Shown here: in pieces, positions 4,483 through 64,000 of the stretch | Layout: every line of letters starts with the position of its first letter | Position numbering within the stretch: position 1 is the first letter of the stretch | IMG/VR virus record: IMGVR_UViG_3300013023_000001 | Location: 1 to 64,000 of that record | Direction: 5' to 3' (one strand) | DNA from: a virus | Length of the DNA stretch: 64,000 bases | The notes under the pieces: model-generated | What the model saw: only the letters and a program-made list of their open reading frames with translations | What the model was told of the DNA's origin: nothing | The model's database searches: none | Position numbers and translations under genes: made by a program

Positions 4483-4511
4483 ATTATATCATATTTAATA
4501 GTAACAGTCAA
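4483..4511 (-). promoter_or_regulatory. sigma70-type early promoter P-d (near consensus)
   Basis: Minus strand: AAATAGTTC-TTGACT-N17-TATAAT with extended -10 (TGATATAAT). Confidence 0.7.
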
Positions 4512-6575: not shown

Positions 6576-6995
6576 ATGGATAGCGAACAATTGAAAAGGT
6601 TGGCTGGGGTTACTGATGAATATGAAGAAAAAGGTATGAACCCACAGTCAGGTAAGTTCGAGAAAGGTAATAAGTTCGGAAGAGCTAAAGGTAAAAGAAA
6701 CAAATTAACTCAAGCTATGCTAGACCGTGTTGCTCAAGCTGGTTTATCCCCTGATGAAGTGTTGATTGATATTTATCAAGACCCAACAATTCCTCCTGAC
6801 TTAAGATTCAAAGCTGCATCTAAGATTGCCGATTTGGTTTATCCTAAAGCTGCATCAATTGAAGTTAAGATGGATGAACATGAAGCTATGTCTGAGGAAC
6901 AATTAGATAATCGCATTCGTGATTTCTTGTCTGCTAATTTGGGTAAAGATGTTTTGCCTCCGTCAGACGATGAAGATGATTCAGATGACGACTAA
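6576..6995 (+). CDS. putative terminase small subunit
   Basis: 139 aa directly upstream of terL, after an AAGGAG SD. Basic N-terminal GNKFGRAKGKRNKLT segment and acidic DDEDDSDDD tail. Called from position and size only. Confidence 0.45.
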   Translation: MDSEQLKRLAGVTDEYEEKGMNPQSGKFEKGNKFGRAKGKRNKLTQAMLDRVAQAGLSPDEVLIDIYQDPTIPPDLRFKAASKIADLVYPKAASIEVKMDEHEAMSEEQLDNRIRDFLSANLGKDVLPPSDDEDDSDDD

Positions 6996-7010
6996 AGGTT
7001 AATATAGGAA

Positions 7011-7048
7011 GGGGCCGCTCTTATTAATTTAGGGTAGCCCCTTTTTTT
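7011..7048 (+). terminator. hairpin + T7 tract between terS-like gene and terL (terminator/attenuator)
   Basis: GGGGCCGCTC...GGGTAGCCCC imperfect 10-bp stem followed by TTTTTTT. Confidence 0.5.
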
Positions 7049-7063
7049 CGTGATGGAGGAAAA

Positions 7064-12266: not shown

Positions 12267-12305
12267 TGACTAAAAATAAAAGTTATGATAGGAGATAAAT
12301 AATAT

Positions 12306-13238
12306 ATGGCTACTTTAGTATCATATGATCAGAACGGTAAAAAACTGTCGTTCGCAAACTGGATTTCTATGATCTCTCCAGAAGATACCCCATTCGTATC
12401 TATGACTGGTAAAGAGTCTATCAACCAGACCCTGTTCCAATGGCAGACTGATAGTCTTGCTGCTGTGAACGAGAACAACGCTGTTGTTGAAGGTTCGGCT
12501 GCTGTAGACGGTACTCTGGGTTCAACCACTGTACTGAACAACGTAACTCAGATTCTACGTAAGGTTGTTAAAGTTTCTGATACCGCTAACACTCTGGCTA
12601 ACTATGGTCGTGGTCGTGAGTTGATGTATCAGATGGAAAAAGCTGGTAAAGAAATCAAGCGTGACTTGGAAGTGATTCTGCTGTCCGATCAAGCTATGGT
12701 TACTGGTTCTAGCACTGTTGCTCGTAAGACCGCTGGCTTCCAAGCTCTGGTTGCTGCTCTGAATGCAGTTGACCCGGATACTGGTGCAGTAGTTCACAAA
12801 GAAACCGCCGCTTCTGGTGTATTCACCGAGAATGAATTGTTTGATATTACTCTCCAGTTGTACACTGCTGGTTCAGAAGCTGATATCATCATGATTCATC
12901 CTAAGTTTGCAACTCAGTTCGCTGAACTGCAAGAGAAGGGTGGTGCAGGTGGTGCTACTCGTGTTCGTCTGTTCGAGAATACTAAGCAGTTCATCAAGCA
13001 AGTTAACACCATTACTGACCCGCTTGGTCAGACTTATAAAATCGTTGTTAACCGTTGGATGCCAGAAGATGCAATTTACTTCTTCCAAGCTTCTGACTGG
13101 ACTCAGATGGTTCTGCGCGCTCCTAAGCGTACCGAACTGGCTAAAGACGGTTCTTATGAGAAGTGGATGATTGAGATGGAAGTTGGTCTTCGTCACCGCA
13201 ACCCATTCGCATCTGGGATCTTGAAGGTAAAGGCGTAA
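12306..13238 (+). CDS. major capsid protein
   Basis: 310 aa after the scaffold gene, with a GGAG SD. The FQWQTD-containing N-terminal region matches my recollection of podophage major head proteins. A strong terminator follows the Ig extension. Confidence 0.8.
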   Translation: MATLVSYDQNGKKLSFANWISMISPEDTPFVSMTGKESINQTLFQWQTDSLAAVNENNAVVEGSAAVDGTLGSTTVLNNVTQILRKVVKVSDTANTLANYGRGRELMYQMEKAGKEIKRDLEVILLSDQAMVTGSSTVARKTAGFQALVAALNAVDPDTGAVVHKETAASGVFTENELFDITLQLYTAGSEADIIMIHPKFATQFAELQEKGGAGGATRVRLFENTKQFIKQVNTITDPLGQTYKIVVNRWMPEDAIYFFQASDWTQMVLRAPKRTELAKDGSYEKWMIEMEVGLRHRNPFASGILKVKA

Positions 13239-39474: not shown

Positions 39475-39660
39475 TTATTCGCCTTCTTCTAATATCATTT
39501 GAGAAAGGGATTCATTAAGAACCCCTGCTAAAGCAATGGCTTCGGAGATATTATCGGTTTCTCCTTCTTTTACATCTTGTTGCTTATTGATAATCCAATA
39601 CTTCTGAACATACTTCACATAAACAACATCGTATAAAGTGAAAGACTTAATCACCCGCAT
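39475..39660 (-). CDS. hypothetical protein (61 aa)
   Basis: The ATG at 39660 overlaps the sigma-factor stop. No motif recognised. Confidence 0.45.
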   Translation of the reverse strand: MRVIKSFTLYDVVYVKYVQKYWIINKQQDVKEGETDNISEAIALAGVLNESLSQMILEEGE

Positions 39661-40294
39661 GAATTTCCATCTCCTCTGATGAGAAATGCCGTAAGGCAAT
39701 TGTCTCAAACTTTGTTTTGTGGTCTTTATATCTACGGTAAAATGTACCATGAGATATGTTTAATTTGGTCTGAACTTCATCGTGAGAGAATCCTAAGAAA
39801 ATTAAAGTGAACATATCACTAACTTTCTTATCACTAAATGACTCCTGTAAGTCCTCTAAGAAGAAATAAACACGAGCCTCAGTGAATGGGTCACCTACAC
39901 TATGACAACGGTTTACAGCCGTTTCCAGAGGCGTCTCATCACTATTAGGATTATCAAACATCATACTTTCAGTTAGTACATCAATACGACGTTCAAGCAT
40001 AGTATTACGATTAGAGCGAATTGACCAGATAATGTTTTTTACCTGATAAGTCATATTCTCTTGATGAGACGGCAGCATACGATAAATTCGTTCCTGACGT
40101 TCAAAAATAAATCTCCATACGTTAATGAAGATCTCTTGAGTAATATCCTCTGCTTCATGATAATCTTTTAAATCATACATAAAGAACTTGTGAACAACAC
40201 CCCAATTGCGCTTATAAAACTCTGTATAAGTATCTTTGTACTCAATCGGAATACCGTGAATACGATAACGGGTTGCTGTGGTTTTACCAGCCAT
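39647..40294 (-). CDS. phage-encoded ECF-like sigma factor
   Basis: Region 2-like HEAEDITQEIFINVWRF. Region 4-like helix-turn-helix FLGFSHDEVQTKLNISHGTFYRRYKDHKTKF. 215 aa. Confidence 0.75.
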   Translation of the reverse strand: MAGKTTATRYRIHGIPIEYKDTYTEFYKRNWGVVHKFFMYDLKDYHEAEDITQEIFINVWRFIFERQERIYRMLPSHQENMTYQVKNIIWSIRSNRNTMLERRIDVLTESMMFDNPNSDETPLETAVNRCHSVGDPFTEARVYFFLEDLQESFSDKKVSDMFTLIFLGFSHDEVQTKLNISHGTFYRRYKDHKTKFETIALRHFSSEEMEIHAGD

Positions 40295-40507: not shown

Positions 40508-40852
40508 TTAAATCTGACTATCAGCCCATTCTATTGCTTTAAGGAGAACGTCTCCGTGACATTCTTTAGGCTTGCAATAACAAACTAGATCTCTTCCTTT
40601 CATATTAGCAAGTTCTTGTATTGTTATATGACCTATTTTTATTTCATTCCACAGCCAAGTTCTATATTTTGATATAGCAACTTCTCTGGAATATTTATCT
40701 AGGCTATAAACGTTTTGAAATTTAGATCCTTTCAAACCCCATTTATAATTAGGTCTACCTATATAAATTGAATCTTTAGGAACTTTGCAACCAAGATGAT
40801 AAAAATTTAATACCTTACCACTCTCCAATGATTCCAAATTGAACCTCACCAT
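40508..40852 (-). CDS. DUF4326-like protein
   Basis: IYIGRPN...KFQNVY...LVCYCKPKECHGDVL resembles the DUF4326 signature (C.C.P..CHGDVL). Based on recollection. Confidence 0.5.
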   Translation of the reverse strand: MVRFNLESLESGKVLNFYHLGCKVPKDSIYIGRPNYKWGLKGSKFQNVYSLDKYSREVAISKYRTWLWNEIKIGHITIQELANMKGRDLVCYCKPKECHGDVLLKAIEWADSQI

Positions 40853-44091: not shown

Positions 44092-45927
44092 TCAGTGTGT
44101 ATGTAACCAATTAGCTCCAATCTGATAATCAGAAGCCAATGGACATTCCATTTTCAGATATTCTCCAGCCCTTTTAACACACAGTGCCATAAGTTCTGTT
44201 AGCTTATCAACATCATTTCTATTACAAGAGAATTGGCCTTCATCATGCATATCAATGACTTTCGCACAACGAACTTTATCACGACGAATCCATTTATCTA
44301 AGAAGATCATTGCATACTTCATAACAATAGCCCCGGCGCTCTGTAATAAAGTATTTAGTGCTTTATGTGTCATAACCTTACCTTGAGCATCTCTACGCAT
44401 GGTAATCCTACGACCATCAACACCCTCAATATAACCTTTCTTAGCTTTCTCTGTCATACGGTCAATAAGAATTGCAATACAAGGATTCTCTGCTAAGAAT
44501 CTTTCTCTCATAATTGCACCTTCTTCTTTACCACCTCCAGTGATACTGCCAAGCTTAAGATCTCCCGCACCATAGTTGAATGCATAAATAAACGTCTTAG
44601 CATTATCACGAGTAGGTAGGCCAGCTAATTTCATATTATGAGTATGAATGTCGCCGTCTAACAGAATGTCACGATAAAGAATTGCAGAGGCTAGACCACG
44701 TTCTGCTGTTGCTTTTTTAGAAGGGTTATTCTCTTCAACCGCTTCTTTTAACATGGCCCTACACTCAAAGATGAGGTAGTGAGCTAGCATACGAAGTTCT
44801 AAACCTGAACCATCATAACCAACAAATATCTCACGTCCTTGAGGGATGTAATACTTGTGGATTCCTACAGGTTTGTTTTTCTTCTGGTCATAAATAACGT
44901 TAGTGCCTGACTTAATATAGCAACCGTCTGGTACACTGTTAGTGACAATAAACCGAGAAGAATGATCGTCGTCAGCATTAATGTCTGACTGGAATAAGCT
45001 TCGGCACTCGTGACCAAAGAATCCCCTTGATGGAATATTAACCACAACACGATGCTTAAACCGGAAAGTCGGAGTAGCACACGGATTAGCATCTGCCGAC
45101 AACTTACCATCGACACGTTCCTTGTTAATAAGACCTTTGATTAGACCCATGCGATGAGAAGCTATCATACGCTTTTTAAGCAGTCCACCAACACGACCTA
45201 GGTCACCATCAAGACTTTCATCCAATGTGTCCTCTAAGTCCGTAGGAGCAGTAATCCACTTATCAGATAGGGCAAGCTTCTTTTTGATTTGATCAAAAGT
45301 CGGTGGCCTTGTTTTTACATTGAAACCTAATCCATAAAGATAAGCTTTCATGTAGTTTACAGAACGTTGCTTAAAATGTTTTTGTACGAATTTTTGAATA
45401 TCCGCATCAACCATTGCAGCAATCTGACGCTCTTTTGCATTCCCTCGACTGTACTGATTTAGCCATTCGGCATAAGTCATACGTTGGAGGTCACGACGAA
45501 ACTCATGTACGTTCCACGGCTTCTTCGTTGTATTCCACTCTGGAGGAAGAAAACCTTCATCCATTAGTGCTTCTTTAACACGTTGTACTTTCGAGGGGTC
45601 AAAATCTACATACTCTACCGCTGTAAACGGCCCACCGATTTCCTCTCTTGTCAAACCTACCCTATCAGCATATTCTTTGGGCCATTTAGATAAATCGCCA
45701 TTTAGCTTAAAAGGTTTACGATAGGATGTACCGTCTAAACGCATTTTAGGTAACAGAGGGATTAGTTCAAGATCAATCTTAAGAATATATTCAGTTAAGA
45801 CATGAACAAACCATCTAGCTTGTCTACCGTTAAAACTGACTCCATGTTTTGATTGCCTGCTAATAATGTCAGCTACACACATTTCAACTTTAAACGGGTC
45901 GTAGTTAACATTCTTTCCATCGGTCAT
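44092..45927 (-). CDS. family A DNA polymerase, polymerase domain only
   Basis: Motif A YDGSGLELRMLAHY, motif B RDNAKTFIYAFNYGAG, motif C IDMHDEGQF. No DEDD exonuclease motifs in this ORF. Confidence 0.9.
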   Translation of the reverse strand: MTDGKNVNYDPFKVEMCVADIISRQSKHGVSFNGRQARWFVHVLTEYILKIDLELIPLLPKMRLDGTSYRKPFKLNGDLSKWPKEYADRVGLTREEIGGPFTAVEYVDFDPSKVQRVKEALMDEGFLPPEWNTTKKPWNVHEFRRDLQRMTYAEWLNQYSRGNAKERQIAAMVDADIQKFVQKHFKQRSVNYMKAYLYGLGFNVKTRPPTFDQIKKKLALSDKWITAPTDLEDTLDESLDGDLGRVGGLLKKRMIASHRMGLIKGLINKERVDGKLSADANPCATPTFRFKHRVVVNIPSRGFFGHECRSLFQSDINADDDHSSRFIVTNSVPDGCYIKSGTNVIYDQKKNKPVGIHKYYIPQGREIFVGYDGSGLELRMLAHYLIFECRAMLKEAVEENNPSKKATAERGLASAILYRDILLDGDIHTHNMKLAGLPTRDNAKTFIYAFNYGAGDLKLGSITGGGKEEGAIMRERFLAENPCIAILIDRMTEKAKKGYIEGVDGRRITMRRDAQGKVMTHKALNTLLQSAGAIVMKYAMIFLDKWIRRDKVRCAKVIDMHDEGQFSCNRNDVDKLTELMALCVKRAGEYLKMECPLASDYQIGANWLHTH

Positions 45928-46300
45928 TCTTTATGATCCTTCTAATATGGGTACTAGAGACTCCAAACCTCCTTCCTAGAGGCTTTGCACCATACTCTCT
46001 ACTACCTGAAACATAAATCTTTCTAATTAAATTGACTTGTTCTTGTGTTAATCTTGCAGATTGATGTTGTTCACCTTTATTGGCAACTTTTAAACCAGTA
46101 TCAAATGCATGTTGAATATTATGAGAATACGTACACCACTCAAGATTGGATGGATCATTATTCCACTTATTACCATCTATATGATTAACACAAGGTAAAT
46201 TATTGGGATTAGGGACGAAGTTTTCTGCTACCCAGCGATGTATGTGAACCCTTTTTCCATCCACTCTCATCTTTTTGTAATAATCTTTTTGTACATCCAT
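45905..46300 (-). CDS. HNH homing endonuclease (paralogue of 5322..5777)
   Basis: NPNNLPCVNHIDGNKWNNDPSNLEWCTYSHN motif and a matching C-terminal HTH-like tail. Overlaps the polymerase start by 23 nt. Confidence 0.85.
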   Translation of the reverse strand: MDVQKDYYKKMRVDGKRVHIHRWVAENFVPNPNNLPCVNHIDGNKWNNDPSNLEWCTYSHNIQHAFDTGLKVANKGEQHQSARLTQEQVNLIRKIYVSGSREYGAKPLGRRFGVSSTHIRRIIKNDRWKEC

Positions 46301-48498: not shown

Positions 48499-48684
48499 TT
48501 AGCTTCTTTTATTGATACAAGTTAAGATTTCCTGAAATCCTACTGATATACAAAGAAAAATTACAAACCACTTATCAGGAACCATATAATCCAAACCTAT
48601 AGCTACAGCAAAAGCAAAGAAAACTACTGCAAGTGTTGCATTAAAAATCTTACCCATAGTATTAAATAGCCTTTTAGTTGACAT
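48499..48684 (-). CDS. small membrane protein (61 aa, two hydrophobic segments)
   Basis: MSTKRLFNTMGKIFNATLAVVFFAFAVAIGLDYMVPDKWFVIFLCISVGF... The start overlaps the macrodomain stop. Confidence 0.5.
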   Translation of the reverse strand: MSTKRLFNTMGKIFNATLAVVFFAFAVAIGLDYMVPDKWFVIFLCISVGFQEILTCINKRS

Positions 48685-49183
48685 ACTCTGTTCCGTCGAT
48701 CTTATCAAGAGTAAAAATGTAGATATCGTATTTTTCAGGGTCATTAAAAATATTTTCAATAAACCCCGAAACAACTTTCCAATCACCGCCTGCTAAACCA
48801 CAACCAATCAAAGGAAATCCAATTCGAATCAATTCAGGATGAAAATCATCTACTTTCGTATCCAAATCCTCTTTCATTGCTTTCAGAGCAGATTCAAGAG
48901 CGTTGTAATCTGTTCCGTAGGTTGGGTCTTTATTATCGAAAGTATATTGACCATAAAGATTATAGATCAGAGAGGAGTTGTATTTACCGAAGGTAAACGT
49001 TCCTAGTTTATTTTTATCCCCAACCTCTGTAGCATCGTCAGCTTGTTTCGCCTCTGGAAAAGCTTCAAAGATTAGAGGGGCTATTCCCCTCCGTCCCTTG
49101 CAAAAGCAGTTTGCTTGATGGGCAATCACATTTACATGTCCCACCTGTAGGGCATTGATTAGATCCCCTTGAACGTATTTCAT
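48674..49183 (-). CDS. macrodomain (ADP-ribose binding/hydrolase) protein
   Basis: VNVIAHQANCFCKGRRGIAP... and RIGFPLIGCGLAGGDW are macrodomain signatures. Start at 49183 follows GGAGAA. Confidence 0.75.
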   Translation of the reverse strand: MKYVQGDLINALQVGHVNVIAHQANCFCKGRRGIAPLIFEAFPEAKQADDATEVGDKNKLGTFTFGKYNSSLIYNLYGQYTFDNKDPTYGTDYNALESALKAMKEDLDTKVDDFHPELIRIGFPLIGCGLAGGDWKVVSGFIENIFNDPEKYDIYIFTLDKIDGTEYVN

Positions 49184-49227
49184 CTTCTGTTCTCCAGAAA
49201 TTGTCTTCGAAATGTACTGATTCAAAC

Positions 49228-49625: not shown

Positions 49626-50267
49626 TTACTCAGTCTCAGAAACCCAACCTAAAGCCTTAGCAACTACAGGTAGGTTCTCAGTGAAAATACTTTTTGCTAA
49701 CTCAGCAACTTCCATATGTTCTTTCTGTGTTCCATTCGCTGCACGAAGATTAATATAATTAATCCAGCTACGAACATTACCAGTCATATAAATCGTGGTA
49801 GGGGAACACATAGGGAGAATCATACGAGCACACTCTTTAGCTACCCCTTTTTCAAGAAGTTCACTATACAACTCATATGTTCTATAAAACAATGAATCAA
49901 TCTGTGTGCGATAATGCTCTAGCATATCCCAATCAAGATCATCAATCGAGTTCTGACGATTTTTTGTGTCTTGTCTACGGAGTTCGGGAACATCCGCATA
50001 CTCAACCTCAGCATAACGCTGACTAAACTCTTGAAAGGTAAAGCTTCGATGTCTTAGAATCTGTGCTGAGATAGCTCTTGTTGTCTTAATCTCCAATGTC
50101 ATTGTAGCTTGTTCGAATACAGACCAGTGACCGTGACGTAGACAATAAGAAAGCAGACCAGCAACGTTTGGATTATCTTGATTCGCAGGATTAGATACAC
50201 GAGCGATATAGCCCATAGTTGCTTCTGCATTAGGTGTAATACTTACTAATTTTACTTCTGTAGTCAT
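49626..50267 (-). CDS. thyX: FAD-dependent thymidylate synthase
   Basis: ThyX signature ILRHRSFTFQEFSQRY (RHRxxSxxxxSxR). 213 aa. Confidence 0.9.
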   Translation of the reverse strand: MTTEVKLVSITPNAEATMGYIARVSNPANQDNPNVAGLLSYCLRHGHWSVFEQATMTLEIKTTRAISAQILRHRSFTFQEFSQRYAEVEYADVPELRRQDTKNRQNSIDDLDWDMLEHYRTQIDSLFYRTYELYSELLEKGVAKECARMILPMCSPTTIYMTGNVRSWINYINLRAANGTQKEHMEVAELAKSIFTENLPVVAKALGWVSETE

Positions 50268-52772: not shown

Positions 52773-52970
52773 TTAGATCATACAACTATCACAAACACCA
52801 TCATCTAAACTAAAATCATCTAAGACTATTTCAGAATTAAGTTGAGAAGTGATAGCATCTGCTAACAGAGGAAGAGTAGCTTCTTTTACAAAGATGTTTA
52901 AACCGAAATCACCTTCATCAATTTGAATGAAGTATTTATCTTCCTGTTTAGTTACTTTAATATCAGTCAT
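52773..52970 (-). CDS. hypothetical acidic protein (65 aa)
   Basis: Leftward ORF ending ...CDSCMI. No motif recognised. Confidence 0.5.
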   Translation of the reverse strand: MTDIKVTKQEDKYFIQIDEGDFGLNIFVKEATLPLLADAITSQLNSEIVLDDFSLDDGVCDSCMI

Positions 52971-53503
52971 TATACCCCCTTGCTTGCATGAACTTTATCA
53001 GAGTTATTGTAACGACCCTTAACTGCATAAGAATCATCACCTGCTGGAGAATGCTCAGAGAAGATCATCTGACCTACTCGCATACCTTTACGAACACGTA
53101 AGCTGTGATGTTTAGTTACGTTATGAAATTCGAAAGTAAGTTTAGACTTATTAAATCCAGCATCTGCCCAACCTGCCATTAGATGGTTCAATCCACAACG
53201 AGCCATAGAACTACGGAGAATGAATTGACCACTGATATTATCAGGGAGATTAAACTCTTCGACACTATGAGCCAAGAAGAACTCTCCGGGCTTTACAATA
53301 TATCCCTCATCTGGAATCTCAACTTCTTTCCAGTTTAAGTTTTCTTTCTTATCAATATCAACAACACCACTGGCAGATTCCTCTACTAGAATGGTGTCGC
53401 CAATACGAATATCAATAGAAGCAGCATTTACAAATTCATGTTTTGCATCCAGAAAACCGTTATCAATTACTTCGTGTAATTCCTTACTCCCTAAAAGACT
53501 CAT
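52970..53503 (-). CDS. dcd: dCTP deaminase
   Basis: Blocks align with E. coli Dcd: AASIDIRIG, VKPGEFFLAHSVEEFNLPDNISGQFILRSSMARCGL, DAGFNKSKLTFEFHN, GMRVGQMIF. Confidence 0.8.
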   Translation of the reverse strand: MSLLGSKELHEVIDNGFLDAKHEFVNAASIDIRIGDTILVEESASGVVDIDKKENLNWKEVEIPDEGYIVKPGEFFLAHSVEEFNLPDNISGQFILRSSMARCGLNHLMAGWADAGFNKSKLTFEFHNVTKHHSLRVRKGMRVGQMIFSEHSPAGDDSYAVKGRYNNSDKVHASKGV

Positions 53504-54394: not shown

Positions 54395-54949
54395 TCAAAA
54401 TTCAGTACAATAGAAATCAAACACAGGAGGGTCATCAACTTCAAACCCTGCACTACGAACTAAATGATGATACAACAAAACAGTTACGTGAACGTCTTGT
54501 TCGCAGTATTCATACATTTCTTCCGTAAATTTGTCCCATGCGTTTTCTGTTTCGTCTCCATACGCACCTTTAGTATCACCTAAACGAATACCCCAAGATT
54601 TCAGAGAATGCCCTGATGGAGTTTCGAAGTTACGGTCAGGTTGTAGGAATCTACTTAAACTAAGAGTGTCTAAGACTTTAAATTCAGTTCCTGCTAATGC
54701 AGGATAAACTTTAGTCAAAGCTGGCAAGTCAAAGTCAATTATATTGTGACCAACTACTACATCAGCTTCTTTAAGTTTAATTATGCCATGAGCGATTTCG
54801 TGGGGACGGAATCCCCACTTCTCACCAGTAATTACATCTTGAATCCATAAACACCAGACACTTCCGATGGTGTCATACAGACCATCAGATTCAATATCGA
54901 ATGCATATATCTTCTTATTAGAACGGTAAGCTTTCATCTCTTCTCGCAC
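54395..54949 (-). CDS. stand-alone DEDD 3'-5' exonuclease (T7 DNA polymerase N-terminal domain-like)
   Basis: Exo I FDIESDG, Exo [16 protein letters not shown], Exo [12 protein letters not shown]. 184 aa. Confidence 0.8.
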
Positions 54950-56750
54950 TCTCTTCCATTGCGATTACATCTTCCATGCAAGTAAATGGATCACTCTCAT
55001 CTACTTCTGCTTCTGTACGTTCTAAAAGACGTCCTGTGGCTGGATCGTATTTTGTATAACAAATACCAGTCTGACCATAGTTACGTTCTTTCAGAAGCCT
55101 GATAAGCGATAAGTTTTTACCATTACCATCTGCCTGCTTATTACGTTCAAATCCGATGATACATTGACACCAACGCATCAGAGAACGAGAACCTGTAAAT
55201 TGAACCTCTTTAACCTGACCACCCTCTTCATGAGGATTACCTGATGTTGGAGCGTTCAAGTGAGACAGAACAAAAGCTGTGAAATTCAATTCCTGACACA
55301 TACCTGCCAATTCAGATGCAATCTTACTGATTTCAGTGTTGATTTCAGAAGGCGTCAAATGAGATACAAGTGCTGTGATATTATCAAGAATAATATATTT
55401 ACAATCATTCTCAACAACCCAAAAACGAATACACTGCTTAATATCATCCCAATCGTTCTGACCAAAGTTGTCATACAAGAAAAACTTATCAGCAAACTTC
55501 AAAGCTTCATTATATAGAATGTCTTGATCATAATCGACGTCTGGACGATGGAATGGAATACTTGCTGACTTACCAGCGATATTCTTAATAGACATGCCGA
55601 CTTTTTCTTCTAAGAAGAATCCACCGCCATTATATCCATGTTTAAGTCCGAGCCATGCTACCAATTCGTGTGCAATGAGAGTTTTACCTGACCCTACACC
55701 ACCACCGATTGCTACCATCTCTCCCCAACGAATACCAAAAGTCATGTTATTCAGAGTTTCCCAAGGATAAGGAACACCCCATTCAGGTTTCTTCAGAGCA
55801 TCTTCTAAACAGTCAAAAACAGTTACAGAACCTGCTGGAGACTCTCGTTTAGCAGAGAATTTTAAGATGTTGAATAATTCCTGACCACGACCTGCCAGAA
55901 GCATATCATTGGCATCTTTCATCTCTTTTTCTTTTTCATTGTAAGTAAAGATACCTTTCGGAATCCTTGCAAACTTTGCGTTAGGATAAAGAGCACGACC
56001 CTTAATCAGAGCTTCCTCGCCCGCTGAGTCATTATCCATACAGATAACGATTTCATCAAAGCCATTAAGAAAATCACGATTACGGGACATGACAGATGAA
56101 ATACTGCCAGCACCATTTGGAAGTGCAACACATGCTGGTTTGATGTTTGTCGCTGTAGTGAACTGAGTCAATACATGAAAACCTGACATACAACTCAAAG
56201 CATCTTCAAAAATGAATAACTTCTTGTTATAAACATCACCACGTTGTGCTTGTGATAATCCAAAGAAATCAGACTCTTTAACATTACCAACAAAGTAGAA
56301 GAACTTACGTTCAATACCTTTTACTTCATAACCCTGAATATCTCCATCTTTTTCACGAGGAAAGAAATAACTTACAGGGGTTTGACCATCTTCACAACTA
56401 AGACCGATACGAACACCATAACGTTCAGCTACAGCTTTTGGAATTAATCGAGCAGACAAATCTTTTTGAGGTAATTCCATAACTTCATCAAGAAGCTCTT
56501 GCAATTCCTCTGGTGATAATTCTTTCTTTTCTTTGACTTCTGGCATAGAGCCTTTGTCAAATACTTCGTAGTGACCACATCTACCGCACTTGCCCCAGCG
56601 CTCATCTGTTTTTGTGTTATGAAACAACACTAGATGGTTGCCTGATTTATCTCGCCCATGAGAGCGGCACTCTGGGCAAGCTGTGTCACCTACGATTACT
56701 TTATCGACTTTCACGCTCTTCTCTCCTTGAGTTCCATGAGCATTTACCAC
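54918..56750 (-). CDS. bifunctional primase-helicase (T7 gp4-like)
   Basis: Zinc ribbon CPECRSHG...[22 protein letters not shown], DnaB-type Walker [10 protein letters not shown] and Walker B YIILDN. Confidence 0.9.
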
Positions 56751-57217: not shown

Positions 57218-57634
57218 TTATTTGTCCTTGCAGAACTCAACCCAATCACCAGATTCTACACGAACTGGCTGTGTTTCATCGATGTGATAGATCCAAGCTT
57301 CTACTTGTTCACCTGAATCCAACAGTACCGGAACCAGTGTACGTTTGTAGAAAGTGTGTGGATTATCATTACCACGATGACCTTCAAGACCATCATACGG
57401 GCCTTCCAGACCGGATTGATCAGTTTCAAACACTTCAACTACTACAGGTTTTTCAGAAGTTGAATGAGCCAGAGAAACAGATGGGAAATAGCAAGAGCTA
57501 TACTGATGCAGATCGTAGTTATCAACAGTACGACCTTTACCAACTAAAGTTGCTCCAGCACGATCATTTACAGACGCATTGTGCATACCAGAACGAAGGC
57601 TACCATATACTGCTACTAAAACTTTACCAGACAT
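57218..57634 (-). CDS. gamma-glutamyl cyclotransferase (GGCT/AIG2-like) family protein
   Basis: VAVYGSLRSGMHN...; VVVEVFE...YDGLEGH...FYKRTLVPVLLDSGEQVEAWIYH is the family pattern (YGSL.., LD.lEg...Y.R, eAwiY). Confidence 0.75.
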   Translation of the reverse strand: MSGKVLVAVYGSLRSGMHNASVNDRAGATLVGKGRTVDNYDLHQYSSCYFPSVSLAHSTSEKPVVVEVFETDQSGLEGPYDGLEGHRGNDNPHTFYKRTLVPVLLDSGEQVEAWIYHIDETQPVRVESGDWVEFCKDK

Positions 57635-57876
57635 TATTTCTCTACCTTATACAGTGTATTACTTACGAGTTTTAATCTACCCTGCTTAACTAAACGTCTT
57701 AAGTCAGGATCTTTTTTAAATTGAGGATTATTGCTTTTATTGATTAACCAACCGTTGCTTTTGTCTGACATAAAATCCAGAATCAATTTACGACGAGTTT
57801 TACCAAAAGGTGTAGATACTAGTTGACACCCAAAGCATTTACAATCTCTTCTAAACCACCAAGCTGGTCTATTCAC
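57634..57876 (-). CDS. hypothetical basic protein (80 aa)
   Basis: Leftward ORF carrying a CKCFGC motif. No family recognised. Confidence 0.5.
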   Translation of the reverse strand: MNRPAWWFRRDCKCFGCQLVSTPFGKTRRKLILDFMSDKSNGWLINKSNNPQFKKDPDLRRLVKQGRLKLVSNTLYKVEK

Positions 57877-58052
57877 TTTGTAACCTTACGAGATTTCATA
57901 GAGTTTAAAAGATTAGAAGAAAAACTATGAGACATTGAATCAAACAGCCCATTACTTTTAGGGCCGGATTTGACAGTCTTTTCAAGTCTTTCTAGTAACT
58001 TACGACCATTCTCTTTCTGCCATGCTTTATGTTCAGCACTACCGATTTTCAT
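57873..58052 (-). CDS. hypothetical protein (59 aa from Met41)
   Basis: AAGGAGAA precedes the ATG at 58052. The longer track ORF would overlap the upstream gene. Confidence 0.45.
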   Translation of the reverse strand: MKIGSAEHKAWQKENGRKLLERLEKTVKSGPKSNGLFDSMSHSFSSNLLNSMKSRKVTK

Positions 58053-58113
58053 GTGATTCTCCTTAAATTGAATCAACATAAGGCACTCTTTCGAATACCT
58101 TATAGCAAGCAAT

Positions 58114-58884
58114 TTAGTGAACAATACCCCAATGAGCGTGACCTTCAAGTTTTGCCCAATAGAATATTGCACCAGTAGCTTTATGCTGCTCAGTCATGCG
58201 ATAAGAAACATAACGAGCTTGTTTAGCACTGGTAAAGATTTGTTGAGGAGGTGCGATACTAGAAGGAGTCCAGACAATATATCGTTCTTCTTCTAACGTA
58301 GTTTTAACAACACCTTCTCTAGCAGTCGAGATAAGTTTGAAAATATAGTAATCATTAAAAAGAGGAATCTCTTTTAATGTCTTGTCTACTTTGTACCTAA
58401 ATTTCAATCCTGATTCAACATCAGTAACAATACAAATACTATCTTCAACAAATTTTAAAATAAATCTAATTTCATCAGAAGGCTTTACAGTAACCCCCCA
58501 ATAACCAACAACATCTTGTGCTGTTTTATCCACTTTAGCTCTGGCGACATAAACTTCACCTTTTTTACCAGTGACGAATTGTTTACCAACAAGAACTTCA
58601 CTATGATTTGGATATTCAGTTTCCAAGTCAAATGCTACTATATTTTTTCTTTCTTCAACTTTGTAAATTGCTTTACCGTAAAAGGTTTCATCGTCAAGGA
58701 AATAAGGTCTTATTGCCACATTAAAAGGCACACCCAGATAAACCCCTTTAGCATATCTTGTTCCACGTTTTTCTACAATAGTAAATCTACCAACGACAGA
58801 TTTTGCTACCTTAACAACAAAATACTCCCCTGCTGTAAAAGAGTGAGGTCTTTTCTTATTCATCAACGTTTCAATATTGGACAT
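58114..58884 (-). CDS. hypothetical protein (256 aa)
   Basis: Long leftward ORF. No motif recognised. Confidence 0.65.
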   Translation of the reverse strand: MSNIETLMNKKRPHSFTAGEYFVVKVAKSVVGRFTIVEKRGTRYAKGVYLGVPFNVAIRPYFLDDETFYGKAIYKVEERKNIVAFDLETEYPNHSEVLVGKQFVTGKKGEVYVARAKVDKTAQDVVGYWGVTVKPSDEIRFILKFVEDSICIVTDVESGLKFRYKVDKTLKEIPLFNDYYIFKLISTAREGVVKTTLEEERYIVWTPSSIAPPQQIFTSAKQARYVSYRMTEQHKATGAIFYWAKLEGHAHWGIVH

Positions 58885-58920
58885 TTATACTTCCCGATTA
58901 TTAGTGTTATCAAACACGAG

Positions 58921-59523
58921 TTAAAGAGTTACAAATCTGAATCCATCAATCAATTGGGTTTCCAAACGAATATTACCAATTGAATCAGGGCTTAGAAACA
59001 GAGTAGCCCAACCGTAGTCATGAATATTAGTAGTTGCTTTAATTCGAGCAAAAGTTCCTACTAAATTTTCATAATACTCTACAGGACGAATAGATTCTGA
59101 AAGAAGTTCAGGATCAAGAATTACTTCCATACCCGACGATTTAATACCACGTTTTGTTACTGTAGCAAAGACTTTAGTTGTGGCTTCGTATCGATAAGGT
59201 TCAGTACGAAAGAAACGACTAGTCCAATCTAATACACTTTCAGGGGCATCAATCCAACCTCGTTGATTGTATCTATTATCTCTGCCGAAGAAAGGAACCC
59301 AATCAAGGTTAGCTACATCAGATGGATTATCAACATGTAAGATTTTAACATTTTGCATACTTCTAGCAAAATAGTTTTCAAAGCAAGTGTAGTATCTAAC
59401 ATTACTTTGATGAGAATTAAAATCTCTTAAAAAAGATTCTCTAAGGGAGTCAATTTGACCATATACTGATAAGTCTGAAAACAAGACAGAGAATAGTTGA
59501 TTATGCTTTAAGATTAAATACAT
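58921..59523 (-). CDS. hypothetical protein (200 aa)
   Basis: Long leftward ORF. No motif recognised. Confidence 0.65.
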   Translation of the reverse strand: MYLILKHNQLFSVLFSDLSVYGQIDSLRESFLRDFNSHQSNVRYYTCFENYFARSMQNVKILHVDNPSDVANLDWVPFFGRDNRYNQRGWIDAPESVLDWTSRFFRTEPYRYEATTKVFATVTKRGIKSSGMEVILDPELLSESIRPVEYYENLVGTFARIKATTNIHDYGWATLFLSPDSIGNIRLETQLIDGFRFVTL

Positions 59524-59705
59524 AGTTGCTCGACTTTATGAATATTCGACACAGGAATAGAACAGATAGTATCCCATTTCGCTTTAGATGTTCCTACATT
59601 CAAAAAAGAATAAGCTGTTTCATCGTTCCAAAGCTTATTTGCTTCGATAATATCAGGAAGCATCTCTTTATCTTTGTAGTAAACTTTAAACTTAAGCTTA
59701 TCCAC
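59514..59705 (-). CDS. hypothetical protein (63 aa from GTG)
   Basis: The GTG at 59705 overlaps the upstream stop (GGTGGATAA). The N-terminal part of the track ORF is judged untranslated. Confidence 0.4.
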   Translation of the reverse strand: MDKLKFKVYYKDKEMLPDIIEANKLWNDETAYSFLNVGTSKAKWDTICSIPVSNIHKVEQLCI

Positions 59706-59877
59706 CAAGCTTGTCCTTTTCAACGACAGGAACATTGGCAGGTACAAAAGCAACCACACCAGTTTCAGTTGAAAACTCATACCAACTATCAACACGAACA
59801 ACACTGTTCGCTTTGATTTCCATTTGATTGGACATATAAGGATTAACTACAAAAGTTCTTGCTTTTTGTTTTGACAT
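59698..59877 (-). CDS. hypothetical protein (59 aa from Met7)
   Basis: GGAG lies 7 nt upstream of the ATG at 59877. No motif recognised. Confidence 0.45.
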   Translation of the reverse strand: MSKQKARTFVVNPYMSNQMEIKANSVVRVDSWYEFSTETGVVAFVPANVPVVEKDKLGG

Positions 59878-59915
59878 AAAAACTCCATAGCCCATCCAAA
59901 GGACAGGCTTATAAT

Positions 59916-60152
59916 TTATACAGGGATTTTAGTGACAGCTTTATCTTCTTGCCACTGAGTAAGCATCTTACGGGCGCTTTCTTCATCTTCACGTTGCATA
60001 AATGTTACGAAAGCTGAATACTCACTAGATACTCGACGCTCATTAGTGATTCCATACTCTTCGCAAAGCTGTTTTAAAACCTTGCGAGAGTGAACAATAA
60101 GAGGCTCTTTTTCTTCCATAAAACCGCGTTCGATGATGTCTTCCATTGACAT
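59916..60152 (-). CDS. hypothetical protein (78 aa)
   Basis: Leftward ORF. No motif recognised. Confidence 0.5.
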   Translation of the reverse strand: MSMEDIIERGFMEEKEPLIVHSRKVLKQLCEEYGITNERRVSSEYSAFVTFMQREDEESARKMLTQWQEDKAVTKIPV

Positions 60153-60168
60153 AATAATACCCTTATAA

Positions 60169-61458
60169 TTAAACGTTTACAGTGTTACCATTACTCATGG
60201 TAACAGATGACATACGACGGAAATTGCTTGCTTCGTTACGAGGAATTGGCATATTCCAACCTGTACGATATGCACGGTTGTTGGCAACCCAAACAATAAC
60301 ATTATCCAGAACAGAGCCACCTAATGTACGATAAGTACAAATATAGTAACCATCTTCCAGAGTTTGAGATCCTTCTACCGCTCTTGCACCATGACGCGAC
60401 AATGCCATTTGTGGAGCAGCAGGCGTCACAGTAGTAGAACGAGGAGCTTCCTCCAATGCTTCACGGAATGCTCGCTGAGCAGAACGACCAGAATCACGGG
60501 TAAGTAGTTCATTAAACTCGTCTACGGCTATTTCAGTCTCAGTCTCATCGTCACCTTCACCCGCCAGACTAACAGCAGGTTCATTGTCTGACATTACAGT
60601 TAAATCAACAGGGAAAGAAGTCATATGGGTCAATCCATCACGACCACCTGTTAACTGGTCAACTTTAACTTGCAACGCTGTTGCGAAAGCATTCATTGTT
60701 GTTTCAGCTTGAAGACCTGCTGCTGTATTTACTTCCAGAACCCAAGCATCTTCGCCAAGGCTGATAACATCCACAGCACCAAAAGTAAGCCCCATTGAAC
60801 TAACAGCCAGCACTGCATTACGAAGAACAGCCTGCGATGGGTTAATATTTTCTGTAGCATAAATCCACCCTGTGTGATGGTTACGAACATCATCACGATA
60901 GTTAGGATCATCTTGATAACCGTTACGACGACGTTTTACTTGAACGTGAGTGATGATTCCATCAAACACATGAACACGCCATTCACGACGACGACCAGTA
61001 ATACCTTTGGTGTAAAGAGGTGCATTACCAAGAGCACTTCTGTTATCACGAGTAATTACAGTGATACCTTCCCCAGAGTGACCATTCAAAGTGCCACGCT
61101 GATAGACTACACTACCTTCATCAACCCAATTTCGAGCAACTGCTGCATCGGTAGTAAATGGAATGGTAGAAATGCCATGACCCTGCATTGTGTTTAGAGC
61201 ATTCAGTTTGTTCGCTGCACTGTTAAGTGCTGTCTGAGTGTTGATTACACGAGCAGAGCCGAACAACTCAGTAGGAGCAGAACGATTACCATAGTTGATA
61301 ATGATGTCATCATTGCGACCACGGAAGGCACTGTTCTGAGTTTTCAGAAGAACAACACGAACTTGGTTATTACCTTCAAAGCGACGACGAAGCTCATCAC
61401 GCAGAGCAACACAAGAATCAGATGGGCCGTAAGGAAGGATAGCTAAACGAGTAGTCAT
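60169..61458 (-). CDS. ATP-grasp ligase-like protein with C-terminal extension
   Basis: Blocks typical of RimK/GshB-type ATP-grasp enzymes: NKLNALNTMQGHGISTIPFT, VVYQRGTLNGHSGEGITV, REWRVHVFDG, FGAVDVISLGEDAWVLEVNTAAGL. About 150 extra C-terminal residues are unassigned. Confidence 0.6.
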   Translation of the reverse strand: MTTRLAILPYGPSDSCVALRDELRRRFEGNNQVRVVLLKTQNSAFRGRNDDIIINYGNRSAPTELFGSARVINTQTALNSAANKLNALNTMQGHGISTIPFTTDAAVARNWVDEGSVVYQRGTLNGHSGEGITVITRDNRSALGNAPLYTKGITGRRREWRVHVFDGIITHVQVKRRRNGYQDDPNYRDDVRNHHTGWIYATENINPSQAVLRNAVLAVSSMGLTFGAVDVISLGEDAWVLEVNTAAGLQAETTMNAFATALQVKVDQLTGGRDGLTHMTSFPVDLTVMSDNEPAVSLAGEGDDETETEIAVDEFNELLTRDSGRSAQRAFREALEEAPRSTTVTPAAPQMALSRHGARAVEGSQTLEDGYYICTYRTLGGSVLDNVIVWVANNRAYRTGWNMPIPRNEASNFRRMSSVTMSNGNTVNV

Positions 61459-61679
61459 TTCAGTTTTTCTCTCAATTCGTTAATTTTGTTTGTACAATCT
61501 TGGATTTCAATTTCCAAGACTTCAATTTTTAAACGTGCAGTATCAAAGATTTCTTTGGTAATGTTCACGCTGTTAAAGGCAATACTATATTGGCGATACT
61601 GTTCTAACAGTAAGTTAGGTTTTCTCGCCATAAGAAAAGACAGATCAATATTAATCTGATTTAGGTTTTCCAGAGACAT
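61455..61679 (-). CDS. hypothetical coiled-coil protein (74 aa from Met11)
   Basis: ATGA-coupled to the ATP-grasp gene. No motif recognised. Confidence 0.45.
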   Translation of the reverse strand: MSLENLNQINIDLSFLMARKPNLLLEQYRQYSIAFNSVNITKEIFDTARLKIEVLEIEIQDCTNKINELREKLK

Positions 61680-61893
61680 CGATATTATGCCTTTTAATAA
61701 AATCGGCAAGAACCATGTGAATCACGGTTGGAAAAGGTAATTCAACTTGAACCTTTTGAAGTTCAGAAAGACCATCTACCAGATATTTCTGAGCCGCTCT
61801 TAGGTTATCGCATCCTGCATTTGACATAGGGATTTTACGAATAACCGCTACGTCATCCAATAAGATTCTATTAACTTCTTTCATCTTTTCCAT
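61651..61893 (-). CDS. hypothetical protein (80 aa)
   Basis: ATGA-coupled to the amidotransferase gene. No motif recognised. Confidence 0.5.
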   Translation of the reverse strand: MEKMKEVNRILLDDVAVIRKIPMSNAGCDNLRAAQKYLVDGLSELQKVQVELPFPTVIHMVLADFIKRHNIDVSGKPKSD

Positions 61894-63935
61894 TATTTTT
61901 TACCTTTACAATTTTTACAAACAATCCTGTTTGATTCGGTTAAAACACACTCGTTCAAATCTTTCCAAGGAACATTCGAATGACATTCCTCACAAACCCC
62001 GATTTCATTCCATCTGGCTTTGGTGATGTGCATTTGAACTCCGTTTGCTTTTGGGAGGTATTTTGCGACAGGAAAGTTTCCGCTATTACTAGCGGCTTCC
62101 TCCTGCTTCTCACTTTCTTTTTTATAAAAGTAAGAATAAGTCCCGTAAGCTTTCTGAGTAATTCTTGCTTTGTTAAGATCTTTAAACTCAATCTTATCGC
62201 TGCCGGATTCACGAATCATATTCTTAAATTCGTTACTATTAAAAAGACGACGAGCCTTGTTACCGTTTACAGCGATAAAGTCGCAGTTTTCATAATGACT
62301 GATAGTAGATACATTAGTATCATATTTATTCAGAGACCCTTTTCTACGCATCTCTGAACCACAAGAAGAACATATATCTTGCTCTTTTACAGCGGAAGCT
62401 GTGCTGTCAAGAAACTTCATATCCTTCTCTTTACCGCAATCATTACAAAGGAAGGTGTTAGAAGATTGTTGCTCTTGTTCACGCAACTGACGTTCTTCTT
62501 CCTCAACCCTTTTTAAACACTCAGGATGCCAAAATCCCTGATGGGCGAAAGCTGCTTTAGGTGCATCTTTCCAAGCAATCTGCTTGTCACATCCCATACA
62601 GAAACCGTGTTGATGTTGATGCCAAAACTTATAAGTGATCTCTTTACCACCTATTGTTCTGAAAGAGTCATTTTCATCAACACGTATGTTATCAATCTCT
62701 TCATCAAAAGGGATATCATCATTTAACTCCGTCAAATCAGCATCAAGCTGTGCCAGAGTTTTGTTGTTGATTGCATTCTGTTCAGTTTCAGGGGTTGCTA
62801 AACTAACTGTAGGATACAGGAAGCATCTAACAACACCTTTAATCTGAGAGAAACCTTGAATCGTACCAACAACACTAATACGGAAGTCTCGCTGAGAATC
62901 TTCGTAAAGAGCTTCTTCAACGCCAAAAACATCAACTTCTACATAGTCCATGCCATTGTTGTCCATAAAATAACCGGACATCTTACCCTTAGTGCTATTG
63001 TTATAGCGCTCAAACTTAGTAGGGCACATGGCAATACGATGATCAATACGAACTGAAAGACCTTCCATCAAGGCTATAGCATTTTGCTCAGCCTTAATTT
63101 TATTTCTTCTTTCTTCTTGACTTTGACTTCTGTAGTCGTTTCCTGTGTTTCGGTTCGCCGTACTTTGATATCCACTCTGCCAGCCGTTCGAGTAACGGCT
63201 GGCCCATGTAAAAGTTGGCAAATTATGCTTTATCTCCTCTTTCAAGACAAAGCGTTTAGTTGGGCCACTAACATCAAAAACGTACTCAGTTCCAATCTCA
63301 CACTCAAAGTGTTCAATCTTTCTGTTCTTGATACTCTTGTGACGCATCAGAATCCACATCAGCATATCTTCTTCTGACGCACCGAACCAATCCATACCAG
63401 CTTTAGCCAAATGGAAAGGACGCTCATCATTACGAATAATATGTACAGTATCATCTTTAGCATCGTGCCAAACTAAAGTGAAAGCACCATTCAGTTTTTG
63501 GATGGTTTCAGCAGCACCAATTTTGTCAATTGAATAACAAACATTGTCACTATCAACAACAAAGTTTTTAGAGTCAGGAAGAAGATCCTGATCATACAAG
63601 GTGCCGTTGTGAACCAGTGTAATATTGCCGTGTTGAAATGGATGAGCATTTTTACTGTCACCAGAAGCACCACGAGTTGCATGGCGGTTATGTCCAACTA
63701 AAAACGTTGGGTAAGTATTAACCTTAGTAGCTCCAGTTAACACTTCATCGTACTCTTTACGATGCTGGAAGATATAAGATGGTACGGCTTCTTTAGCCAT
63801 AACAATACCTTCTGGACGTTTAGCAAACACACCAGTGGCATGAACGCCACGGAAAACGTCTGCATAAAGAAGGTGATTAAAAACCTCAACTTCTGTACCA
63901 GTTAAACTACCGCCTGCAAGCACTATTCCACACAT
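61893..63935 (-). CDS. class II (Ntn) glutamine amidotransferase domain fused to a ~480-aa Cys-rich/zinc-ribbon region
   Basis: N-terminal MCGIV (nucleophile Cys2), GHNRHATRG, NAHPF, HNGTL and DSDN are GATase-II motifs. The C-terminal part has CMGC...HPEC, CNDC...CSSC and CEEC...CKNC pairs and no recognisable synthase domain. Confidence 0.7.
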   Translation of the reverse strand: MCGIVLAGGSLTGTEVEVFNHLLYADVFRGVHATGVFAKRPEGIVMAKEAVPSYIFQHRKEYDEVLTGATKVNTYPTFLVGHNRHATRGASGDSKNAHPFQHGNITLVHNGTLYDQDLLPDSKNFVVDSDNVCYSIDKIGAAETIQKLNGAFTLVWHDAKDDTVHIIRNDERPFHLAKAGMDWFGASEEDMLMWILMRHKSIKNRKIEHFECEIGTEYVFDVSGPTKRFVLKEEIKHNLPTFTWASRYSNGWQSGYQSTANRNTGNDYRSQSQEERRNKIKAEQNAIALMEGLSVRIDHRIAMCPTKFERYNNSTKGKMSGYFMDNNGMDYVEVDVFGVEEALYEDSQRDFRISVVGTIQGFSQIKGVVRCFLYPTVSLATPETEQNAINNKTLAQLDADLTELNDDIPFDEEIDNIRVDENDSFRTIGGKEITYKFWHQHQHGFCMGCDKQIAWKDAPKAAFAHQGFWHPECLKRVEEEERQLREQEQQSSNTFLCNDCGKEKDMKFLDSTASAVKEQDICSSCGSEMRRKGSLNKYDTNVSTISHYENCDFIAVNGNKARRLFNSNEFKNMIRESGSDKIEFKDLNKARITQKAYGTYSYFYKKESEKQEEAASNSGNFPVAKYLPKANGVQMHITKARWNEIGVCEECHSNVPWKDLNECVLTESNRIVCKNCKGKK

Positions 63936-64000
63936 TATTAAAAGCCCTCTATTTTACATTTAAATTTTAATTACAAACGACTTACGAAAGTATCTAAACT

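Follow-up and report, generated by a model that had tools for sequence, protein, structure and literature searches.

Predicted downstream half of a phiEco32-type amidoligase cassette in a divergent relative of phiEco32-like phages

The locus and its distribution among phages

An amidoligase cassette of the phiEco32 type is described in Iyer et al. (2009), where it was first predicted, and in Hardies et al. (2013), according to the papers quoting them (PMC5498523, PMC6256558, PMC10580990). Duhaime et al. (PMC5498523), citing Hardies 2013 and Iyer et al., list it in RIO-1, phiEco32, 7-11, PA11, tf, MR299-2, LUZ24, PaP3 and CW02. The ATP-grasp, amidotransferase and YtfP/GGCT proteins of phage SU10, all encoded in the early gene block, have been observed by mass spectrometry (PMC4281155). 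The PhiM6 and OM43-phage papers (PMC6256558, PMC10580990) propose that the cassette modifies host peptidoglycan or the cell wall and so blocks superinfection, and a role in nitrogen metabolism was speculated for Phage-ZRK32 (PMC10945688). Here we examined positions 1–64,000 of the IMG/VR record IMGVR_UViG_3300013023_000001 (the window, 64,000 nucleotides; coordinates below are window positions unless a contig is named). An earlier note, made from the letters alone, had grouped three of its genes, at 57218–63935, into a single early phage pathway for the formation and trimming of amide bonds. Judged from its sequence, this region is almost certainly the 3′ (downstream) half of a phiEco32-type amidoligase cassette, and such cassettes probably encode an early cytoplasmic pathway that builds and trims amides.

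The open reading frame (ORF) list shows a tight gene string on the minus strand from 54.9 to 64.0 kb. It includes the three minus-strand ORFs claimed, which encode 680 amino acids (aa) at 61893–63935, 429 aa at 60169–61458 and 138 aa at 57218–57634. The closest GenBank genomes belong to Kuravirus, with approximately 41% protein identity, and by this comparison the source of the window is a divergent relative of phiEco32-like podophages. Across 52–64 kb, the window shares approximately 94% DNA identity with a Logan contig of 88,363 bp (L003). The last nine codons and stop of a further minus-strand gene occupy positions 63971–64000; their translation, SLDTFVSRL, is the C-terminus of the L003 protein encoded at 8835–9965, which matches Pfam Amidoligase_2 (PF12224; 1.9e-6) and phrog_7469 (1e-98). 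The system therefore runs past the window edge. Upstream of the amidotransferase, L003 encodes, in order, a 390-aa protein, a 282-aa protein, a COOH-NH2 ligase (PF14395, named “Phage phiEco32-like COOH.NH2 ligase-type 2” in Pfam), a 197-aa protein and Amidoligase_2. The full core cassette comprises six genes: COOH-NH2 ligase type 2, the ~200-aa protein, Amidoligase_2, a class II glutamine amidotransferase with an OB fold (GAT-II + OB), an ATP-grasp ligase closest to RimK, and GGCT. The window thus holds a new, divergent member of an already described but uncharacterised phage cassette. The earlier note read the functions correctly, but it had rediscovered the phiEco32-type cassette and missed two further ligases just past the window end; its mention of earlier comparative-genomic predictions also stands.

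We collected 40 further loci from IMG/VR, built iterated hidden Markov models (HMMs) for nine cassette families and anchored 47 loci on the amidotransferase. Amidoligase_2 was present in all 47 loci, the ATP-grasp ligase in 45, and GGCT in 41. The COOH-NH2 ligase and the ~200-aa protein, both encoded in L003 and expected beyond the window end, were each found in 43. Missing families mostly fell at contig ends. The cassette genes are found together in Kuravirus-like, LUZ24-like, Zobellviridae, 7-11-like and marine uncultured phages, and the six core genes are contiguous in many marine contigs; two upstream proteins and DUF7195 are confined to Kuravirus-like, 7-11-like and LUZ24-like phages. The same family order was found in NJ01 (NJ01_104 to NJ01_092), LUZ24 (gp14–gp22) and UFV-P2 (PMC3890496), and variants of the cassette occur in Vibrio phage 1.293.O, PA11, Arthrobacter phage Laroye and Vibrio phage Phriendly. 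Since 41–47 of 47 loci from diverse phages share the genes, the linkage is far above chance. Nine unrelated small ORFs lie between the three genes in the window (the earlier note had counted ten), as might be expected if they were adjacent by accident and functionally unrelated. However, the recurrence of the genes across unrelated phage groups, their contiguity in compact form and their matching phyletic profiles refute a chance neighbourhood, which we consider barely credible.

Among 50,697 GenBank phage records, the amidotransferase was found in 326 (approximately 0.6%) and the ATP-grasp ligase in 312, with nearly equal genus counts. The carriers include groups used in phage therapy (Kuravirus and LUZ24-like Bruynoghevirus) and abundant marine podophages. 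In a pattern scan that covered 185,579 bacterial and archaeal species at one genome each, only five tiny contigs matched, so the family is essentially confined to phages. Six co-conserved amide-chemistry genes among replication genes, essentially absent from cellular genomes, suggest an important step in infection. In one locus, L022 (IMGVR_UViG_3300028285_000026, 3482–7606), the genes for the COOH-NH2 ligase, Amidoligase_2 and the amidotransferase are each broken into two ORFs, whereas they are intact in the near-identical L021; the split genes represent either a decaying cassette or assembly errors. The support for claims of carriage by archaeal viruses (PMC11706807, bioRxiv 2025.02.15.638363) was too weak, and we did not use them against the peptidoglycan proposal.

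Promoter-like and terminator-like sites did not exceed their frequency in shuffled sequence, which leaves no sequence basis for drawing operon boundaries. All-against-all hhalign comparison of the nine families revealed no hidden paralogy and gave no assignment to the two upstream proteins or the ~200-aa protein. No gene fusions between cassette families were present in 242 fetched proteins, PADLOC gave no match to a defence-system protein, and searches with profiles of the two upstream ligase families retrieved no relative of solved structure.

Predicted enzymes and a possible build-and-trim pathway

The gene at 61893–63935 (minus strand) encodes a 680-aa class II (Ntn) glutamine amidotransferase comprising a GAT-II domain (aa 1 to ~245), an OB fold (aa ~293–374), and zinc ribbons with a small beta domain (aa ~420–680). 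The motifs quoted in the earlier note were found, with MCGIV at residue 1, GHNRHATRG at 81, NAHPF at 96 and HNGTL at 109, and Pfam GATase_6 matched with 5.8e-15. An AlphaFold model (mean predicted local distance difference test, pLDDT, 85) matched the glutaminase domain of GlmS, PurF, AsnB and EgtC (E 4e-12 to 1e-7), and EgtC was also among the NCBIfam matches. Cys2, R84, T87, N110, G111 and D128 are kept in at least 90% of the cassette homologues. We take R84 and D128 as the counterparts of GlmS Arg73 and Asp123, the residues that hold glutamine by its alpha-carboxylate and alpha-amino group, and presume by the same correspondence the roles of Cys1, the Arg/Thr pair, the Asn-Gly oxyanion hole and Asp. 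As the earlier note had observed, the protein has no SGGxDS PP-loop, and Pfam found no synthase domain in it; the OB fold and the zinc ribbons occupy its C-terminus. Pfam likewise found nothing on the longer C-terminal extensions of homologues.

The M-C-G start is present in 34 of 40 unique homologues, and five of the remaining six are Kuravirus-type genes from Escherichia coli phages. We read two of these five, NJ01 (L001 9001–11031) and ECBP2 (L009, from 10001), and both open with ATT, in frame with ICGIV, whereas ATG is the start codon of the window gene. The ATT of NJ01 is preceded at a distance of 7 nt by a GGTGGA ribosome-binding site; the annotated NJ01 start is approximately 113 codons downstream, so the annotated protein is without its Cys nucleophile. 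The ORF is truncated in the same way in the phiEco32-type loci L011, L012 and L016, and by this identical truncation phiEco32 itself probably also starts at ATT.

The gene at 60169–61458 (minus strand) encodes a 429-aa ATP-grasp carboxylate-amine ligase. It is closest to RimK over aa 1 to ~260; beyond this, an acidic low-complexity linker leads to a conserved C-terminal domain of approximately 65 aa. Searched singly against PDB chains, the three window proteins had marginal matches or none, so family profiles were needed. The window protein alone matched phrog_2599 (3.5e-113) and, in Pfam, solely R2K_2 (0.0053; 17.1 bits against a cut-off of 26.2); it had no match to Pfam RimK, which 36 of 43 homologues did match (E 9e-9 or worse). 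The family profile reached RimK structures at ~3e-6 and D-Ala-D-Ala ligases at E 0.006–0.4, and Pfam Dala_Dala_lig_C matched 20 of 43 homologues. The RimK family model TIGR00768 scored 18.2 bits against a cut-off of 143. K84, E159, R161, K175, D230, E242 and N244 are conserved in all 39 unique homologues. The ligase call of the earlier note thus stands at family level only: the enzyme is predicted to be RimK-like, not RimK. Membership of the R2K (CDC123-like) clade was considered and rejected, since R2K_2 is below threshold and weak in only 6 of 43 homologues while RimK scores better. The tail matches phrog_20552, which is also a stand-alone phage family. Within residues ~257–429 (60169–60690), Y372 and G400 of the tail domain are nearly invariant, and the window protein is 11 aa longer than its counterpart in the 94%-identical relative.

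The gene at 57218–57634 (minus strand) encodes a 138-aa AIG2/GGCT-type gamma-glutamyl cyclotransferase (YtfP/GGACT-like; Pfam GGACT 1.3e-15, phrog_2520 1e-40), again as the earlier note had proposed. The family profile matched E. coli YtfP (1xhs) at 3e-21, AIG2 structures of the human/mouse GGACT type at ~1e-10, and YkqA. The Y10-G11-S12-L13-R14 motif and E84 are conserved at 97–100%; the protein thus keeps the YGSL-type motif and the catalytic glutamate of GGCT/AIG2/GGACT-fold enzymes and is a predicted cyclotransferase. Three loci (PA11, Phriendly and L039) have room for GGCT but are without it, and all three carry a Peptidase_C26 gene beside the cassette (1e-16, 3e-14 and 2e-22), at L005 426–1052, L007 5044–5730 and L039 9137–9790. 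The Peptidase_C26 family, which is class I amidotransferase-like, includes gamma-glutamyl hydrolases. The gene looks like a non-orthologous replacement and, because it stands in for GGCT, the GGCT step would be the removal of a gamma-glutamyl group. The replaceability of GGCT by a gamma-glutamyl hydrolase is a new detail from the present analysis.

These features are consistent with the following scheme, which we consider the probable one overall. The cassette would be expressed early in the cytoplasm alongside the replication genes, as the SU10 homologues are placed, and its three ATP-dependent carboxylate-amine ligases would form amide bonds of the peptide or gamma-glutamyl kind on a substrate, one after another. 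The ligase product would then pass to two processing enzymes specific for a glutamyl group whose alpha-amino and alpha-carboxyl ends are free. Given the missing synthase domain and the resemblance to EgtC, the Ntn amidotransferase (Cys1) most likely acts as an EgtC-like gamma-glutamyl-amide hydrolase; less likely, it passes ammonia from glutamine to a partner ligase. The cyclotransferase would take off the gamma-glutamyl group as 5-oxoproline. By analogy with several bacterial pathways, glutamate may serve as a transient handle or activating group. The analysis shows the folds, that the active sites are intact, that the genes are strictly co-conserved in a fixed order and restricted to phages, and that they are expressed in a relative; from this we infer which chemistry each step performs, how the steps follow one another and what they act on. 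The gamma-glutamyl part of the logic is an evenly balanced proposition.

Several points weigh against this scheme. The amidotransferase retains every residue for true glutaminase activity, and it could supply ammonia to a glutamine-synthetase-like ligase in an amidation pathway like that of MurT/GatD. Because RimK-family ligases make alpha-peptide bonds on C-terminal glutamates, not every ligation need be gamma-glutamyl. An Ntn hydrolase and a cyclotransferase together are redundant under simple trimming, and the conserved OB fold and the ~200-aa core protein are left outside the model. We know of no demonstrated activity for E. coli YtfP, the closest solved GGCT relative. The literature offered no substrate, product or phenotype for any cassette member, and our full-text search found no experiment defining the cassette substrate, as the earlier note had said.

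Candidate targets and the gene neighbourhood

The OB-fold domain of the amidotransferase (aa 293–374; 62814–63059, minus strand) was resolved in a second model of residues 271–680 (pLDDT 87), which placed the zinc ribbons and small beta domain after it. The fold is five-stranded, a helix lying between strands 3 and 4, and Foldseek matched only nucleic-acid-type OB domains (SSB, RPA, Teb1, Ta0387, HIN and baculovirus LEF-3), all weakly (E 5e-3 or worse). Of 40 unique cassette amidotransferases, 34 were positive with an HMM of the domain, among them the 380-aa marine forms and LUZ24 gp19, so GAT-II + OB is the core architecture of the family, a new detail from the present analysis. The zinc-ribbon extension (aa 420–680; 61896–62678, minus strand) contains C446/C449/H470/C473, C497/C500/C522/C525 and C648/C651/C673/C676; the earlier note had listed three CxxC...CxxC pairs, which holds for sites 2 and 3, whereas site 1 is CxxC...HxxC. 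Modules 1 and 3 resemble one another. A search of this region in 1.84 billion representative proteins returned only seven matches, five of them in the same amidotransferase family. The zinc ribbons are a non-core addition specific to Kuravirus-like phages, also a new detail.

These domains bear on whether the chemistry is directed at nucleic acid, with an aminoacyl or gamma-glutamyl adduct built and trimmed on phage DNA or RNA, or on a substrate presented on single-stranded nucleic acid. The GAT-II + OB protein would tether the pathway to single-stranded nucleic acid, and the cassette would install and trim the adduct on replicating phage DNA or RNA. If true, three amide ligases and two maturing enzymes that remove gamma-glutamyl groups would together produce a nucleic-acid modification of a new class. 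The nucleic-acid-type OB fold, the three zinc ribbons in the window lineage and the constant position beside primase/helicase and other replication genes all point this way, and amidoligase and amidotransferase genes accompany thymidine hypermodification genes in viromes (Lee et al. 2021, PMC8989533). However, the OB matches are all weak and OB folds also bind proteins and sugars. A Pfam scan of the 20 minus-strand ORFs of at least 100 aa at 38–55 kb found no 5-hmdU kinase, aGPT-Pplase, dUMP hydroxymethylase or base-exchange enzyme, no tRNA genes lie within the window, and the literature search showed no DNA modification for Kuravirus or LUZ24-like phages. We regard a nucleic-acid target as unlikely.

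The ATP-grasp ligase bears on two other targets. A RimK-like ligase, perhaps with the other two, might tag a host or phage protein with glutamate or a short peptide, and the Ntn enzyme and the cyclotransferase would edit or remove the tag. RimK is the closest characterised family of the ATP-grasp enzyme, and RimK, LysX and ArgX all act on protein C-termini; the extra conserved C-terminal domain could bind the target. GGCT-family cyclotransferases, however, use gamma-glutamyl amines and not alpha-linked polyglutamate. DUF7195 and the ~200-aa protein both lack a conserved C-terminal Glu or Gly and so do not resemble a carrier or tag, no fusions were found, and no peptidase was found besides the Ntn amidotransferase and Peptidase_C26. 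The R2K paper (PMC4431377) predicts host-protein modification by phage ATP-grasp enzymes, but membership of that clade is unsupported here (the sub-threshold Pfam 0.0053). Protein tagging therefore seems doubtful to us.

In the published peptidoglycan hypothesis (PMC5498523 section 16, PMC6256558 and PMC10580990, citing Iyer 2009 and Hardies 2013, whose content we give as quoted there), the ligases make unusual stem-peptide linkages, the amidotransferase and the cyclotransferase degrade them, and the altered host surface blocks superinfection. The reach of the ATP-grasp profile to D-Ala-D-Ala ligases, with Dala_Dala_lig_C in nearly half of the homologues, fits this proposal, and peptidoglycan precursors are cytoplasmic with gamma-linked glutamate (textbook). 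RimK nevertheless outscores Ddl for the ATP-grasp protein, and the cassette has no Mur-type ligase. No cassette-family protein is annotated as membrane or secreted, by annotation only, as no signal-peptide or transmembrane prediction was made. The genomic place of the cassette is always the replication and nucleotide-metabolism arm, a cell-wall enzyme would not be expected to carry the conserved OB fold, and partial cassettes occur in Arthrobacter phages, whose hosts have very different wall chemistry. We consider this predicted role improbable.

The enzyme set could also serve auxiliary metabolism, boosting host nitrogen, glutamine or glutathione metabolism through the gamma-glutamyl cycle to feed replication. 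The enzyme types of that cycle (a GCS-like ligase, an ATP-grasp ligase, an Ntn hydrolase and GGCT) parallel the cassette. The proteins, however, are not close to host enzymes (NCBIfam scores were far under the cut-offs, e.g., GlmS 33.6 against 381), and the family is essentially absent from cellular genomes. The OB fold, zinc ribbons and uncharacterised core proteins are also ill-suited to a simple metabolic supplement. This role was suggested for Phage-ZRK32 (PMC10945688), a paper that offers growth correlation only and no enzymology, and we judge it very unlikely.

We therefore give none of these targets, nor any other single one, more than a minor share of our confidence, and the remainder beyond the named ones, either another small molecule or something not yet considered, is a tentative prospect of its own. 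With the build-and-trim pathway as the probable frame, the substrate question is sharpened by the OB fold in the amidotransferase core, by a GGCT step that a gamma-glutamyl hydrolase can replace, and by zinc ribbons and small ORFs that are non-core. The window adds modest new leverage to this question, which is itself worthwhile.

The intervening ORFs are all on the minus strand. An 80-aa DUF7195 protein (61651–61893; Pfam PF23825, 1.3e-19) is present in 15 loci and always follows the amidotransferase in Kuravirus-like, 7-11-like and LUZ24-like phages (LUZ24 gp20). Between it and the ATP-grasp gene lies a 74-aa ORF (61455–61679), with a gene called at the matching L003 position (12257–12481). 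Seven lineage-specific ORFs follow at 59916–60152, 59698–59895, 59514–59705, 58921–59523, 58114–58884, 57873–58052 and 57634–57876, and their PHROG matches are only to “unknown function”. The gap between the ATP-grasp and GGCT genes is 2.5 kb in the window versus 0–700 nt in LUZ24 and NJ01, and because the two genes adjoin in compact cassettes, the seven ORFs are non-core filler. Two of them, within 58114–59523, are mid-sized (200 and 256 aa); the counterpart interval of NJ01 has three annotated ORFs of 61–82 aa.

Outside the system, a primase/helicase gene (54918–56750, minus strand; DnaB_C on the L003 orthologue) lies 468 nt downstream of GGCT. A primase/helicase was 220–2300 nt downstream of the cassette in 17 of 48 compared sequences (Kuravirus-like, LUZ24, PA11, Vibrio 1.293.O, 7-11, L020, L039 and the window), and the position of the cassette in the replication and nucleotide-metabolism arm is constant. 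The family A DNA polymerase is in pieces on the minus strand, with a 3′–5′ exonuclease ORF at 54395–54949 and a polymerase ORF at 44092–45927 directly preceded by an HNH endonuclease ORF (45905–46300); the LUZ24 polymerase is likewise two-part. Minus-strand ORFs at 39647–40294, 40508–40852, 48674–49225, 49626–50267 and 52970–53503 encode a sigma-70 region 2 protein (phiEco32 sigma factor-like), DUF4326, a protein with a weak Macro-domain match, ThyX and a dCTP deaminase-like protein. Past the window end, a few kb upstream of the L003 cassette and on the same strand, lie genes for a nicotinate phosphoribosyltransferase (NAPRTase) and a TerC-family membrane protein (501–3094). In Vibrio 1.293.O, lipoprotein genes are annotated beside the cassette.

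Comparison with known systems

We compared the cassette with two further systems to which we could not assign it. Membership of a thymidine hypermodification cluster (5-HMUDK/aGPT-Pplase) was rejected because the partner genes were missing in the Pfam scan of the 20 replication-arm ORFs, in which ThyX, dCTP deaminase and PolA were present. The bacterial ATP-grasp/Ntn peptide-tagging system of Iyer 2009, defined by a circularly permuted ATP-grasp and a GS-like ligase, an alpha-E domain and a proteasome-type Ntn peptidase, was also rejected: such Pfam families match no cassette protein of the window or L003, and the Ntn protein here is amidotransferase-type.

Among the phage cassettes, those of phiEco32, NJ01 and SU10 (Kuravirus) are like that of the window, with two proteins, COOH-NH2 ligase, the ~200-aa protein, Amidoligase_2, the amidotransferase with OB fold and zinc ribbons, DUF7195, ATP-grasp, GGCT and primase/helicase in this order. 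They differ in sequence, with identities of only ~40% for the amidotransferase and ATP-grasp proteins and ~60% for GGCT, and their ATP-grasp to GGCT interval is 0.5–1.1 kb, compared with 2.5 kb of extra ORFs in the window. LUZ24 gp14–gp22 (Bruynoghevirus) and UFV-P2 ORF19–29 likewise hold nine families in the same order directly upstream of primase/helicase. In contrast to the window proteins, the LUZ24 amidotransferase (510 aa, 28% identity) has the OB fold but is without zinc ribbons, and its ATP-grasp protein (294 aa) is without the C-terminal tail domain. The seven-gene “peptidoglycan modification cassette” of RIO-1, PSA-HP1, PA11 and PhiM6, whose published interpretation also covers phiEco32 (PMC5498523, PMC6256558), has the same core enzyme families but differs in order, with the amidotransferase first; in PA11, Peptidase_C26 takes the place of GGCT and no OB domain is detectable.

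Among characterised enzymes, RimK, the ribosomal protein S6 glutamate ligase, is the best-scoring ATP-grasp family, and the phage enzyme keeps its ExN motif and ATP-binding residues. The phage enzyme differs in scoring far under the family cut-offs and in its extra C-terminal domain, and nothing in it points to S6. In bacteria, gamma-glutamyl “handle” pathways are represented by EgtA/EgtC (ergothioneine), BtrJ/BtrG (butirosin) and PuuA/PuuD (putrescine). In each, a carboxylate-amine ligase has a partner: EgtC is a class II amidotransferase-like hydrolase, BtrG is GGCT-like and PuuD is a Peptidase_C26. The phage cassette has no close homology to these pathways and, unlike them, comprises three ligases, an OB fold and uncharacterised core proteins.

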